Origin: a virus
Taxonomy: Duplodnaviria > Heunggongvirae > Uroviricota > Caudoviricetes
DNA: 64,000 nt
IMG/VR virus record: IMGVR_UViG_2877245776_000006
Strand: one strand, 5' to 3'
Part shown: piece by piece, positions 3,001-9,000 of the stretch
Numbering within the stretch: the first letter of the stretch is position 1
Layout of the letters: each line of letters begins with the position of its first letter
Program-made: the position numbers

Positions 3001-6000
3001 TGAATAAACACCGGGAACTTGTCATGCAGATTACCGATTCATCCAGCAGTATTGCATCGGAAAAGTGATAACTGGAGAGCTTATGGCAAAAGTATTTACA
3101 CCCGAACAGCGGGAAGAACTGAAGGCACGTATTGTGGAGCTCGTGCGCCTGAATGGTCGGGGAACGTTCAGGCAACTGGCTACTGAAACCGGAGTCAGCA
3201 AGACAGCTGTCAGACGTTTGTCCAGAGAACTGGTTGTCAGTGGCGCTATATTCGACTCAGGTTATGGTTTATTCCCGTCTGATCAGGCGCGTAAGGACTG
3301 GCAAAATGCCCGCAAAAAACTCTCGAGAGCAAAGGCAAAGAAACCGGTTGTTATTGACCCTGGTCTTATCCGGGCATTACCTGATGGGGAAATCCGGCGC
3401 TACGACAGACGCTACAACATAATTTGTCGCGAGTGCCGTAACAGCGAAACGATGCAGCGTGTGCTGGCATTCTGGCGGGGGAGTGCAGAGGGATTGATGT
3501 TCTCCCCGTCGTGAATGACGGGGGCTTACGTGTTCAGAAAAGTGATTCATATAGAGGCTGAATCTGATCTTTTTTGTTCACGTCTGGCTGCCACCATTGC
3601 AGGCAGAGTGAAGGCGTAGACTAAAAACATTTCGGTAAAACTCAGGATCTGGCTTGCCTCAATTGGTGTGAAAACTTCATCTGTATGAACTGCTTTATTG
3701 GCATCAATTCGTACAATATGAGCCCATTCCTTCATCTGTTCAGTGATCAGCCCTTTTTTGTAAATCATCTGAATACGTTGCGACAGCGATTCTTTTCCTG
3801 CTTCATCGCCGAGCAGTTTTTTCGTGGAGATATCGAGGACTCTGCGACAAAGAATTACCACTGTGTCGTACCGCCTCCTCTGTAAATCCTCTTTTGCCTC
3901 AACAAAAGTACGGTCTGCAACCGGGGGCGTATATTCTGGTGCGGTAATTTTTTTGACCGCAGGATAGATCTTGCGGAAACGGTACTGGCTATTTCCTGAA
4001 ATCAGAATATCGAGGTCTTTTTTCTGGCTTTCCGCCATGGGGCCGTGATAGTGGTCTGATGGGATTTCAACAATAGCAACACCTCCTCGATGACAACTTC
4101 TGCATACAAAAGCGACGTTAAAAAGAGGTGTTTTTTCAATTTGTTTTTCGGCAAATGCCTCAATAACAGCTCGCTCTTTTAAACAGTGTGGGCATGTAAT
4201 GTCAAAGGAGACTAAACTCATGGATATTCCTCTCGAAATTAAAGAAATTAACGAAATCATTGAGGTTACTGATCGCCCCGAGTTTACCCTCATGCGTCGT
4301 TATGAAACAGGAACCGACGAACAAAAATACATCATGGTTGCAGCATTGGCTGTGATGGCGATAGAAAGGGAGCGGAGGGAAAAGGACGTAATGGTTATTC
4401 CGGCGAGAAATGATTCACCGGATTTGAGATGGCAGGATCCGGAGTGGGATGTGGCAATCCGGTGATTGATATTTCTCTGGGGTAAAGCGCCGCCAGAATG
4501 ACGGCGCGGTAGTGGAGAGTTAAACGAAGCGGATCTGGAGTTTTTTCCCTGTAGCACGGGCGAATTTTTTCAGTGTGGCAAATGATGGGCCGCTTATACC
4601 TGATGCAAGATTGCTTTCCATTCTGGTGATCGCAGTCGCTTTTGTTCCCATACGTTCAGCAACTTCAGCCTGGGTTAAGCCTGCTTCTTTTCGTGCTGCC
4701 AGCATTTCATCAAGTAGTGCGAATTCGTCGGCGATGGCGTCGTATTCTGCTTTGAAAGCCGGATCCTCCATCCATTTGGCTGCCATTTCGTCGTGTGTCA
4801 TGGTAGGTGTAATGCGTTTACCAGTCATGCTTAACCTCCTTCATTCTGGCTTCAGCTTTTTTGCGTTCGGCTGGCGGTGTTTTCTGCGTTTTCTTAATGA
4901 AACTATGCAGCATAATGATGCGTTTCCCTGTCAGAGTGCAGTAAAAAACACGTGCAATCCCATCGTTGCCTTTAATTCTGAGTTCGAAAAGCCCATCACC
5001 AAAGGCGCTGGTATGAGGTTCTCCGAGATTGCTGCCGTATACCTTCATACGTTCAATGAGATGTTTGTATCGGACACGCATACTCAATGGAAGCTGATCG
5101 ACTTCCAGCCGGACCTCTTCACTGTAGTATTCGATAGTGTAGTTCATAGGTATCAACATAACAAATTTGTTATATGTATTCAAGGACTGTACTGTGTTGA
5201 CGACAACACATATCAAGCAGACAGTCATGCTGTTAGATCACGGTTTGCTTGATGGAAGGTTGACAACTCATAAGAAATTAAATTTATTAATAAGACTCAT
5301 TAAATTTTATGTTAGATTTGCAAGATGACAGGAAACAAAATATTAGGAGCAATAAAAAAAACAGGAGCAGCATTAATGTTTATTATTCTGCTGATCTTTG
5401 TAAAGATAATTGCAACTGAGTTCGGTGATAATAAAATTGATGATATTTTATCAAACAAAGAAGATGCAGATAAAATTGCCTCATACTTAAAAAATGAACT
5501 ATCCAAGAAAAAATTCCCTATTAAAGTAGATGATTATACTACATGGATTGCTGCAACCGTAGAAGGAAATACACTTAATCATTACTATAATATTTATGGG
5601 ATTAATGAAGATATGTCGCCATTTTTTGATGGTGAAGAGATTAAAAACTTAATGAGCCTAGAAATACAAAAAAAATTAAATTCTGTCGAGTGTAAAATGA
5701 TGCAGGAGTATAATTATACATTCAAATATCATTATAACATAATAAACACGAAATATAATGACTTAGTTATAATTATGACAAAGAGTAATTGTCCACAATG
5801 AAGGGGATGCATATGGATAACTCAAAACTGAAGAAAATGCTTATTGCATCTATTATCGGAAACATACTTTTAGTTTTTTTAAATATTCAAGTGTTCAACC
5901 AAAAACACTCCTCAAACGTCATAGACACACAAAAAAAAGAGGATAAAAGTAAGTGGACTGATATAGAAAACATTTATCCTGTGTGTAAGGTTCACAATAA

Positions 6001-9000
6001 TAACACATCTTATAGCGGGCAATTAAAGCCAGAATGGTACTGTTATTGGTTTAATCCAATAACATACAAATACACATATTTAGAAAAGACTCTGATAACA
6101 TCACCCAGTGATGGTGTTTTCTATTTTTCGAACGAGTATACACCAACTATTGAATTACGTCATAAAGCAAGTGACATAAGTGTTCCTGTTGATATATATG
6201 CCAAACAATTATTAGACCGACTGGAACGTGAATCAAATGCTAAAATTTTTCTACCTAAGGAGGCCAAACAGATAAAAAGTAAAAAGTTGGAAAAATGGAC
6301 TTCATTTATTACAGTTATTCCCAAAGACAATTCAAAGGATATAGAGACTTTTCTTTTATCTTTCATTAAAAAGGAAGAGGTTTTATGGACGGTTTTCGTT
6401 GAATACCCAAATGATGATAAAAAGTACTGGTACATTGATGAGAAGACATTTGATCTAATAGATAAGATAACCAGTACTTTTTGATGCGACTATCTGGCGG
6501 GGATTAAATACTATATGCACCGTATTTATTATCCCCTTTTTCTGACGGGATACAGTACATAACGAACAATATAAAGCCACCAATATACGGGATGCACCAG
6601 ATAAACAAGTACCAGGCACTTAACCCAATATCATGGAGTCTGCGGACTTTCAATGTAATGGATGGAATAATCGTAGCTAATACGTAAACGCAAGGTATAT
6701 AAAACCCATAACTAATGCCAGTATTATCTAATGTATATCCGATAAAAAAAAGAACTCCCAAGAATATTAAATTAAACAGATAATACCACCAGAACTCTCT
6801 TCGACTGGCTCGCCCTGAATAATTGAAGTAGTTATTAAAAAGAACATCCGTATACCATGCCAAAGGGGATTTTCTCATGCTTTTATACTCCAAACATTAA
6901 TATTAAATTGATGATTATTAACAACTTAAAACAACGTTAATGTTTTACCTAATAGGGTGTCAACATCTACACAAGGAAATGTTGACACACCACACATTCT
7001 GTCGGATACTCTGCGTCAGGTGCTCAAAACACCTTAGCAAGTAGCGGTTACCGCGCCCGACAGACATGCGGTTTTTTTGTGTCCAGTCTTCTTGGTTTAT
7101 GACCGGGCGTGCGGCTAATACAATACCAGCAATGGGAATATGCCCGCCGACTACTTGCGGTTTTGAGCGCCCGGTCACCCTCTCAAAAGGGGTAAATCAA
7201 AATATCAAGTAGGACACAAAGCATGAAAACCATCTCCGTGGAGTCCCTCTCCATAATTTCATTTAGTAATATACCTGTGGTGACTACAGAGCTTCTTGCC
7301 AGCTTATATGGCACAGAACCAGATTACATCCGAAAAAATTTCAATCGGAATTCTGGACGATTTGTTATCGGTAAGCACTACTTTTTACTTGAGAATGAGG
7401 AGTTGCGCGAATTTAAGCACAGCATGTCTTTAAGACCTTCTGTGAAAATCGCCCGTAACGTTCGCTCCCTCATCCTCTGGACAGAACGCGGAGCAGCCCG
7501 TCACGCAAAAATGCTCGAAACTGATCAGGCATGGGAAGTGTTCGAAAAACTGGAAGACTGCTATTTCAGCCAGGGAAAAACAACACAAACCGAACAGCAG
7601 TCGCATATTCAGCCACAATTCACAGCCGAGGAAATCATCCTCCTTTGCTACATGCAGCTCTGGATGGAAAAAGCCCAGGGCATCAGCAAACACCTGTACC
7701 CCATTATGAAAGAGCTGAACTCCTCATACACGAACAAGCTGTATGACATTGCGTTTGAGACTATCTACATGGTGACGAAGAACAGAGACGCGCTACTGAG
7801 GGAGGTAACACGTCTCGACATGTCAAGTTCCGTTGTCCAGAGGGCCATGCCAATGCTGAAAAGCCTGCGGGCAAGACAATTTGAATTCTGAAACCAAAGG
7901 AGCTTCGGCTCCTTTTTTGTTGGGAAAATCCAGTGAGAGGGAATAATGAACCAGACTATCTTCCTCCGAAGTAAGCAGCAGCAACAATTCGCCATTAACG
8001 CAATCCTTGCAACAACTCTCGATAAAGACAAACCCGTTACGATCCGCATCACCGATTACAAGCGTAATCTCGCTCAAAATGCAAAATTTCACGCGATGGT
8101 CGCTGATATCTCCCGACAGGTTCAGTGGTGTGGCAGGTGGCTAAAACCAGAACAGTGGAAAGTTTTGTTGATCAGCGGTCATGCCGTGGCGACAAAACAG
8201 GAAGCCGATGTTTTACCTGGTCTTGAAGGCGAATGCGTCAATATCCGCGAAAGCAGTGCGCAGATGAGCGTGAAGCGTATGGCAAGCCTGATTGAGTACA
8301 CAACTTCCTGGGCTGTGGAGCAGGGGGTCAGATTTACCGACAGGAGGTACGAATGAGACGACAGCGACGAAGCATTACCGATATAGTCTGTGAAAACTGC
8401 AATTACCTTCCAACGAAACGCTCCCGAAATAAACCCAGGCCAATCCCCAACGAATCTGATGTAAAAACCTTCAATTATACGTCTCACCTGTGGGATGTCC
8501 GGTGGCTCAGACGTCGTGCAAGATTTAATAGTCACTCCGGATAGTTCAATGTACGAGGAATAAGATGATGGCAAACCTACGCAAAGAAGCGCGTGGCAGA
8601 GAATGTCAGGTACGGATTTACGGCGTATGCAATGGCAATCCTGAAACTACAGTTTTGGCGCATTACCGAATAGCTGGAATTTGCGGAACGGGAATGAAGC
8701 CAGATGACCTGTTGGCTGCATGGGCCTGTAGTGACTGCCATAATGAAATCGATCGCCGTACTCGCATTCTCGACAACAACGACTCCAGACTTTACCACCT
8801 GGAAGGCGTGATCAGGACGCAGGCGATACTGCTGAAGGAGGGGAAAATTAAGTCATGAATGAATATGAGTTTGTGCTTCCCTGGCCGCCGACGGTGAATA
8901 CCTACTGGCGAAGACGGGGAAGCCAGTACTACATCAGCGATAAAGGCCAGAAATACCGAAAAGACGTACAGCAAATTATCCGGCAACTCAGATTAGACAT

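Follow-up and report, generated by a model that had tools for sequence, protein, structure and literature searches.

The defence hotspots of P2 and P4 phages are an established parallel for the locus reported here (Rousset et al. 2022, PMC9122126; Vassallo et al. 2022, PMC9519451). In lambda-like phages, the literature names an accessory site at the same position as this locus, and the Abi protein HepS was found there. We analyzed a 64,000-nucleotide stretch of a virus of the Caudoviricetes (IMG/VR record IMGVR_UViG_2877245776_000006; hereafter, the window) and focused on the island at 3515-7222, which lies 3' of the replication genes and before the antirepressor, nin and Q genes. We concluded that the island is very probably an accessory-gene (moron/defence) hotspot of lambdoid prophages, extending from the replication genes to the antirepressor/nin genes. 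The hotspot concept was published before, and the locus represents a known kind of site in a phage that had been sequenced previously. What is added here is its two-slot anatomy of nested modules, the RAZR-type architecture of its DUF4145 gene, and the delineation of a membrane-protein trio with shuffled alleles.

The protein closest in architecture to one of the island products is RAZR, as PD-T7-4 was renamed in 2026 (PMC13017515). RAZR consists of an N-terminal Cys4 zinc ribbon and a C-terminal DUF4145/HEPN RNase domain with the catalytic residues R146/H154; its mode of action is abortive infection, and it becomes active on assembly around ring-shaped proteins of phages, for example the T7 portal or SECphi27 Gp77 (PMC13017515). 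DUF4145 is a divergent HEPN domain (PMC3710099).

Conserved flanks with non-homologous cargo

Judged by its sequence, the window from position 1 to approximately 51,000 is a Stx1a-converting lambdoid prophage (stx1A, 11076-12032) identical to Shigella phage 75/02 Stx. In a megablast comparison with GenBank phages, window 3065-8356 matched 75/02 Stx (KF766125.2; window position 3065 corresponds to its position 12895) with 100% identity and 100% coverage, and POCJ13 with 99.9% identity. The island genes are mainly annotated as hypothetical proteins in both records. The gene order is O-DnaC-DUF1627-DUF977-island-Ant-NinB-NinE-NinX-RusA-NinH-Q. The left anchor is the DUF977 gene ('LygF', 'Ren-like exclusion protein' in PHROG; 3065-3514, + strand; PF06163, 3.6e-28; phrog_142), which was found in 83 of 83 related loci. 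The right anchor is ant, encoding an ORF6N/P22_AR_C antirepressor (7223-7891, + strand; Pfam and PHROG scans), and it is followed by ninB (7946-8356, + strand), the first conserved nin gene.

The first-pass annotation had read the interval 3515-7222 as a defence/moron hotspot. We mapped the marker proteins of the window onto 80 IMG/VR loci encoding a DUF977 relative and found two types of backbone. Type 1 is like that of the Stx1 phage (DUF977 ... Ant-NinB-NinE-NinX-RusA-NinH-Q), and ninB is 97-99% identical across its loci; type 2 (DUF977 ... DUF1367-NinX) is like a second copy of the module that the window itself carries. When the relatives were aligned on these flanks, 69 intervals contained both anchors; they ranged from 2.7 to 6.7 kb and fell into 38 distinct gene architectures. 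That is, related phages carried syntenic, conserved flanks and unrelated cargo between them, including known defence systems, which bore out the hotspot reading. The exact architecture of the window was seen solely in the window, 75/02 Stx, POCJ13 and one contig (L013). We found neither related phages with the same gene set and a backbone-like composition nor an island in which all ORFs matched core phage functions.

Lambdoid phages are mosaic in general, and a difference between the two copies in the window could simply reflect their membership of unrelated lineages, in which case the site would not be special. The two modules share only 67-82% protein identity, the region beyond NinX is variable too, and a crude control based on ORF clusters separated the island poorly from its flanks; these points weigh against a hotspot. 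The ORF-cluster control was noisy, with spurious antisense ORFs and arbitrary cut points, and was replaced by a control based on DNA alignability. The median pairwise alignable fraction in type 1 was 0.50 for the island, compared with 0.91 for the left flank and 1.00 for the right flank; in type 2, it was 0.21 for the island, compared with 0.83 and 0.74, respectively. Two loci (L004 and L005) had flanks 99-100% identical to those of the window and different cargo. In addition, the backbone DNA of the second copy (DUF1627/DUF977) had matches in 4278 of the 5426 complete E. coli genomes (median copy number, 2), whereas the AT-rich cargo of the island was present in 7 of these genomes and the restriction-modification (R-M) cargo of the second copy in 2. 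An explanation by mosaicism alone is therefore very improbable.

Defence and conversion genes were enriched among the alternative cargos, as assessed with PADLOC HMMs and toxin-antitoxin (TA) pairs. The strongest hits were IetS (8.7e-302), encoded with an AAA IetA-like partner (IetAS), and HEC-06/DUF262 (4e-221). PD-Lambda-2_C (1.7e-41) was accompanied by a 'cll' component, and a HEC-04-like ATPase (1.7e-34) adjoined a putative C5 methyltransferase recognised from sequence motifs alone. Another cargo combined a putative C5 methyltransferase, likewise recognised from motifs alone, with Methyltransf_35 and HATPase proteins. A ThsA-like SIR2 protein (9e-32) was encoded with adenosine-deaminase-like and Ham1-family proteins; this three-gene cargo of adenosine-deaminase-like, Ham1/ITPase-family and ThsA-like SIR2 proteins occurred in L067, L074 and L076 (about 10.9-13.7 kb), where PADLOC HMMs matched its single parts and no one named system was recognised. 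The type II R-M pair of the second copy in the window is a further defence cargo.

The PADLOC scan suggested in the first-pass annotation thus gave strong defence hits for the alternative cargos, but for the island of the window it gave no confident defence call, the best match being PD-T7-4 at E=1.5e-3, which counts against a defence role of these particular genes. The matches to NsnC (at the C-terminus of the Gp49 toxin described below) and to capH/RmrA (generic helix-turn-helix (HTH) domains) were weak or partial and were not counted as systems. An NCBIfam scan of the island proteins gave no match over the cut-off.

Two adjacent exchange slots

All genes that the first-pass annotation had named in the island, i.e., those for a zinc-ribbon/DUF4145-like protein, a HigBA-like pair, an AT-rich two-gene operon and a DUF805 protein, were recovered where it had placed them in the ORF list and in the Pfam, PHROG and PADLOC scans. 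It had missed a conserved + strand gene at 4220-4465 (81 aa, small and acidic; phrog_8371, 7.5e-56). This gene was 94-100% retained in type-1 loci regardless of the neighbouring cargo, and homology blocks covered 4224-4513, indicating that it is backbone, not cargo, and separates two slots. The single insertion point that had been proposed for the swapped payloads could therefore not be upheld: the locus consists of at least two adjacent exchange slots with nested modules.

The description of the island as compositionally distinct held for 5.2-7.0 kb, where the GC content was 0.27-0.36, but not for 3.5-5.2 kb, where it was 0.41-0.50 and similar to that of the nin region (0.46-0.50). Its description as mostly opposite-strand held narrowly, with approximately 1.7-1.8 kb of - strand coding DNA against 1.4 kb for the + strand.

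Pairwise blastn between the window and its relatives gave recurrent homology breakpoints at approximately 3473, 4224, 4510-4513, 5214, 6978-7091 and 7442-7468. The first lies inside the 3' end of the DUF977 gene and the last inside ant. Because these breakpoints are inside conserved flanking genes, recombination rather than insertion is indicated. The ant gene was itself mosaic: its 5' 220-245 nt (approximately) varied among relatives and its 3' part was 92-97% conserved. Some relatives carried two or three ant/rha genes in tandem.

Slot 1 was occupied by the - strand DUF4145 gene in 15 loci and otherwise by an unrelated + strand gene of 166 aa. At window 4219-4222 (CATG), the DUF4145 gene (- strand) and gene 4220-4465 (+ strand) share 2 nt of their start codons; therefore, the promoter of each gene must lie within the coding sequence of the other. 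The slot 1 breakpoint coincides exactly with this junction.

Slot 2 of type-1 loci nearly always held a - strand type II TA pair, which was Gp49/HTH_3, HigB-like PF05015 or RelE PF06296/HTH_3. The commonest type-1 cargo was DUF4145 plus Gp49/HigA (2.7 kb; e.g., PhiR5_2), and the island of the window is this cargo with an extra AT-rich block. Among type-2 islands, a Hok/Gef type I toxin was common at the end (15 type-2 loci, L026-L083). TA modules recurred at the right end of the hotspot, and - strand type II pairs of at least five families (Gp49, HigB-like, RelE, ParE and PIN) were present elsewhere.

In the window, slot 2 is filled by a 2.57-kb cassette with sharp bounds (4518-7091), comprising the TA pair and a trio of membrane-protein genes. 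It was 86.8% identical to L084 6711-9334. The cassette edges are abrupt, and its start is exactly the HigA stop codon. A search for att-like sites around the cassette, and for direct or inverted repeats at its flanks, gave only chance matches of 8-9 nt. We rejected transposition or site-specific insertion of the cassette, given its abrupt ends without flanking repeats; the boundaries point to movement by recombinational exchange.

A zinc-ribbon DUF4145 protein in slot 1

The slot 1 gene (3547-4221, - strand) encodes a Cys4 zinc-ribbon and DUF4145/HEPN protein of 224 aa with an N-terminal CxxC...CxxC (PF13643, 4.8e-9), predicted to be an abortive-infection RNase. A 248-aa form of the ORF is an over-extension, as the homologues begin at M25. 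Residues C10, C13, C40, C43, R171, N175 and H179 were invariant in an alignment of 39 homologues, which come from Enterobacterales and a small number of other bacteria. A profile of these homologues aligned the segment RIDsNgAVH with RIvGNqAVH of RAZR (chain 9y9c_OA), such that R171 and H179 of the window protein align with R146 and H154 of RAZR in an R-x3-N-x3-H motif. The profile also weakly matched RPB9 zinc ribbons, to which the authors of the RAZR study had likened that protein. An AF2 model (pLDDT 88.5) placed beta-strands at residues 4-52. The protein thus combines an N-terminal Cys4 zinc ribbon with a C-terminal DUF4145 domain of HEPN fold carrying the catalytic Arg and His.

Several results weigh against a close relationship with RAZR. 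The profile match was distant (E=0.11), the PADLOC PD-T7-4 HMM matched at E=1.5e-3 over profile positions 64-158 of 211 only, and phmmer found no match for the DUF4145 protein in the PDB. Foldseek with this protein did not place 9y9c among the top hits. We call the slot 1 product a distant RAZR-like zinc-ribbon-HEPN protein on the grounds of its predicted architecture. That it also works by a RAZR-like mechanism is, on balance, likely.

A HigBA-like pair with upstream palindromes

In slot 2, the gene for a Gp49/DUF891 toxin of the HigB/RelE fold (4818-5147, - strand, within a longer ORF extending to 5228; PF05973, 3.4e-25) lies immediately upstream of a HigA-like HTH_3 antitoxin gene (4520-4828, - strand; 102 aa; PF01381, 3.4e-11; phrog_1373). 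The two overlap by 11 nt, which is the arrangement of HigBA. The likely start of Gp49 is M28 of a 136-aa ORF, giving 109 aa, and both phrog_2523 and the L084 gene calls start there. Gp49 matched the HigB structure 6af3 in the PDB at 1.3e-5. Other loci carried other type II TA families at the same place and in the same orientation.

A perfect 16-bp palindrome, ATAACAAATTTGTTAT, is located at 5158-5173, just upstream of the toxin start (5147), and an inverted repeat, TGTGTTG-N4-CAACACA (7-N4-7), at 5193-5210 upstream of the toxin gene. It is plausible that these elements (5158-5210) are HigA operators in a divergent promoter region. The sequence TTGACA-N17-TTTATT was read upstream of ATa, the first gene of the trio, in the same intergenic region of approximately 180 bp; therefore, TA autoregulation could influence the neighbouring operon.

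An AT-rich membrane trio with shuffled alleles

The remainder of the cassette encodes ATa, ATb and a DUF805 protein. ATa (5325-5801, + strand; 158 aa; 27-31% GC) is a bitopic membrane protein with a transmembrane (TM) segment at 15-33 and conserved C123/C156. ATb (5813-6484, + strand, with an alternative start at 5789; 223 aa) is also bitopic, with TM 10-28 and conserved C58/C77. The third gene (6504-6893, - strand) is convergent with ATb across a 19-bp gap and encodes an inner-membrane protein of 129 aa with 3 predicted TM segments; it belongs to DUF805 (PF05656, 1.7e-30), scoring 106.1 bits against a Pfam cut-off of 25.7 and showing three hydrophobic segments. In ATa and ATb, a single N-terminal hydrophobic helix is preceded by lysines and the C-terminal domain has a conserved Cys pair. 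For both proteins, the topology is inferred to be N-in/C-out, and the ectodomains to be periplasmic and disulfide-bonded.

ATa and ATb had no match in Pfam, PADLOC or NCBIfam. Only 7 clusters among 5.8e9 proteins contained ATa, all from E. coli or Salmonella. ATb was found in 3 clusters of the same set, and an exhaustive HMMER scan of 1.84e9 representatives returned 3 matches. As these HMMER and word-indexed searches gave ATb essentially no distant relatives, a function cannot be transferred to it by homology. No paper connecting DUF805 with phages was found in the literature.

The trio kept its synteny, orientation and AT-richness at identities as low as 27-31% for ATa and ATb and 41-46% for DUF805, and DUF805 accompanied ATa in every variant. 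The distant carriers are Salmonella prophages where the source names the organism, and the trio occupies the same hotspot there, between DnaC or DnaB/DUF1627 and Rha-DUF1367-Q. The adjoining TA pair on the - strand is of a different kind in each case (ParE, PIN/PhdYeFM, RelE/HTH or Gp49/HTH); therefore, the trio, and not the five-gene block, is the conserved unit. The closest of the diverged ATb homologues (P0003, 52% identity) is encoded by E. coli prophages integrated at wrbA, L084 among them. These carry the same five-gene block, but in their early-left arm, where Ead/DUF551 genes lie on one side and AntA, a Dam-like methyltransferase, xis and int on the other.

Pairwise comparisons revealed that, in the sequences compared, ATa and ATb alleles shuffle independently and DUF805 is conserved. 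The L097 and L098 variants shared 100% identity in ATa, 64% in ATb and 86% in DUF805; for L095 and L098, the corresponding values were 57%, 93% and 99%, and for the window and L084, 92%, 52% and 94%. In the last pair, the drop was confined to the hypervariable ATb ectodomain (5918-6460; 51-72% identity); the neighbouring trio segments at 5218-5717 and 6461-6960 were 94-100% identical and the TA part of the cassette 83-99%. L093 5904-7340 retains ATa (66%) and DUF805 (80%) with a clean deletion of ATb. This variant adjoins a PstI-like R-M pair and a cI-like S24 repressor, i.e., a third genomic context.

A conserved polytopic partner and two swappable periplasmic subunits, restricted to prophages, suggest a membrane-level exclusion or defence complex. 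Tentatively, the trio may be an undescribed, prophage-restricted membrane defence/superinfection-exclusion system, in which DUF805 would be the core or effector and the ATa/ATb ectodomains would be phage-recognising specificity subunits. Such a system would hop between lambdoid slots, mostly beside a swappable TA pair whose divergent promoter may co-regulate it. Several points weigh against this proposal. No homology of ATa, ATb or DUF805 to known exclusion families was found in Pfam, PHROG labels, PADLOC or NCBIfam. ATb is absent in L093 and is thus not essential to the module, and its AF2 model, built from a 3-sequence alignment, failed (pLDDT 49). Low GC content and membrane location are equally consistent with a moron that interacts with the host.

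The cargo, mainly the AT-rich trio, could accordingly be a moron for lysogenic conversion or host adaptation (envelope, stress tolerance, or Shigella/E. coli virulence), possibly silenced by H-NS, and not anti-phage. The GC content of the trio (27-36%) is typical of horizontally acquired, H-NS-bound genes, its predicted topology is membrane/periplasmic, and the PHROG category of the DUF805 family is 'moron, auxiliary metabolic gene and host takeover'. The lack of a PADLOC match in the island, the toxin-converting nature of the carrier phage and the presence of Ail/Lom nearby in the Salmonella relatives fit the same explanation. However, the same slot is filled mostly by recognised defence systems in relatives, the independent shuffling of ATa and ATb alleles resembles an arms-race locus, and the trio was seen in prophages only, never at a chromosomal site. 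We regard host adaptation as less likely but as a serious rival.

Proposed mechanism

The analysis shows which genes the island contains, how variable it is, where its modules end, which domains and folds can be assigned and that the trio is syntenic; the recombination mechanism, the expression of the cargo and all of its phenotypes are inferred. The island would be a nest of independently swappable modules. Cargo would be exchanged by recombination in conserved genes (the 3' end of the DUF977 gene, gene 4220-4465 and ant) without a dedicated mobility enzyme. These flank and spacer genes would supply the homology for exchange among lambdoid prophages, several of which typically share a host; the window holds two. 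Such exchange would account for breakpoints that fall within genes, for the lack of repeats and for the recurrence of the cassette in another arm.

In a lysogen, the early-right operon would be repressed, and the - strand genes (RAZR-like, HigBA and DUF805) would be transcribed independently, without activation of replication or lysis. Lysogen expression of - strand genes is the expectation from established lambdoid biology. Any + strand genes that have promoters of their own could likewise be expressed in the lysogen. A sigma-70 promoter scan found 9 sites against 12.1 expected, which is not above chance and uninformative. Terminator-like sites numbered 9 against 3.8 expected, with 0 at module borders; a T7 run at approximately 7070 is preceded by only a weak hairpin and was not called as a terminator.

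Under the proposed defence function, the slot 1 protein would be present in the lysogen as an inactive oligomer, and a ring-shaped protein of an incoming phage would switch it to an RNase that aborts the infection. The HigB(Gp49)/HigA pair would be autoregulated at its upstream palindromes and serve as an abortive-infection or stabilising module. ATa, ATb and DUF805 may assemble at the inner membrane and in the periplasm into a complex that keeps out superinfecting phages; its specificity would be set by the ectodomains of ATa and ATb, whose alleles are shuffled.

Alternatively, the island genes could serve the life cycle of the prophage itself, with the TA pair as an addiction module, the DUF4145 protein as a DNA- or RNA-binding regulator, and the membrane proteins acting in lysis timing or phage DNA entry. 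The PHROG labels 'DNA binding protein' and 'transcriptional regulator' agree with this explanation. TA pairs are classic stabilisers and TA modules stand at the right end of the island in many backbones, and ATa and ATb lie on the early-right strand, which would allow transcription during lytic growth. However, inducible relatives with 97-100% identical flanks lack each of the genes (PhiR5_2, phiSTEC1589-Stx1c), indicating that they are dispensable, and the catalytic R-x7-H of the HEPN RNase is invariant. A role in the phage's own cycle is thus improbable.

The second replication module and other features

The first-pass annotation had also described a second, paralogous replication module followed by a zinc-ribbon ORF and an R-M pair, and we reached the same result. 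The module at 56547-59555 is a true paralogue of the first, comprising O-like, DnaC-like (82% aa identity), DUF1627 and DUF977 (67% aa identity) genes; its DUF977 gene (59118-59555, + strand) forms the left anchor of the second island (59556-63095). This island begins with the zinc-ribbon ORF (59556-59969, + strand; 137 aa) and continues with an Eco57I/N6 methyltransferase (60184-62016, + strand; PADLOC MTase_II, 1.8e-300) and a BsuBI/PstI endonuclease (62013-63095, + strand; PADLOC REase_II, 2.8e-128). The last two genes are adjacent with a 4-nt overlap and their families match, indicating a PstI-like type II R-M system. An IS1 element (InsA and InsB-like ORFs) starts at 63303, approximately 200 bp past the endonuclease gene. 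In an intact E. coli relative (L092), the island goes on with a - strand ParDE (9857-10431), DUF968, RusA and Q; given this continuation, the second island of the window may be interrupted by IS1.

The immunity region of the second prophage (54680-55714, - strand) encodes ParE_toxin (PF05016), PaaA2 (PF21217) and a cI-like HTH protein of 176 aa, a module that we take to be of the PaaR2-PaaA2-ParE2 type. In the first prophage, a coding motif, QQHQPQQPEAD(W/S), is repeated at window 180-416 and approximately 1090-1130, upstream of and inside the gene for the O-like replication initiator (437-1525). The same region has a (QE)n run, and the motif repeats together with this run are possibly origin iterons.

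Significance

Stx-converting prophages spread Shiga toxin in E. coli and Shigella. The cargo of this site probably decides which phages infect or co-reside with them, and such exclusion probably shapes the competition and persistence of toxin phages. The interval from DUF977 to ninB/DUF1367 occurs in approximately 79% of complete E. coli genomes, often in multiple copies, and could be mined for new defence candidates in the way of the P2/P4 hotspots. The locus adds a divergent branch to the RAZR-type zinc-ribbon-HEPN proteins. It also contains a membrane module of three genes, nearly an orphan, whose allele shuffling is arms-race-like and which current defence-finding HMMs miss.

Comparison with known systems

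The site agrees with the published lambda-like accessory site in its place in the early-right operon, where O/DnaC-type replication genes precede it and the antirepressor and nin/Q genes follow, and a solo HEPN-fold protein is found at both. It shares with the P2/P4 hotspots conserved phage flanks, a diverse cargo enriched in defence genes, and small, packaging-limited payloads. In contrast, the phage family and the flanks are different, and the window site has TA modules at its right end and breakpoints within its flanking genes.

For the individual modules, the slot 1 protein is similar to RAZR (PDB 9y9c) in size (224 aa, compared with 219 aa), in its RPB9-like Cys4 zinc ribbon, in its DUF4145/HEPN domain and in the aligned R-x3-N-x3-H, whereas its sequence similarity to RAZR is very low. 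The TA pair resembles type II modules of the HigBA/Gp49-HTH kind in that the toxin gene comes first and overlaps that of an HTH_3 antitoxin, the toxin has a RelE/HigB fold and palindromes lie upstream; however, characterised HigB is only a remote relative of its Gp49 subfamily (6af3, E=1.3e-5). P22 SieA, T4 Imm and Sp, HK97 gp15 and phi80 Cor are small exclusion proteins facing the membrane or periplasm, encoded by low-GC prophage morons. The trio is similar to them in topology and context only; each of these acts as a single protein, whereas ATa and ATb form a three-gene unit with a polytopic DUF805 partner.

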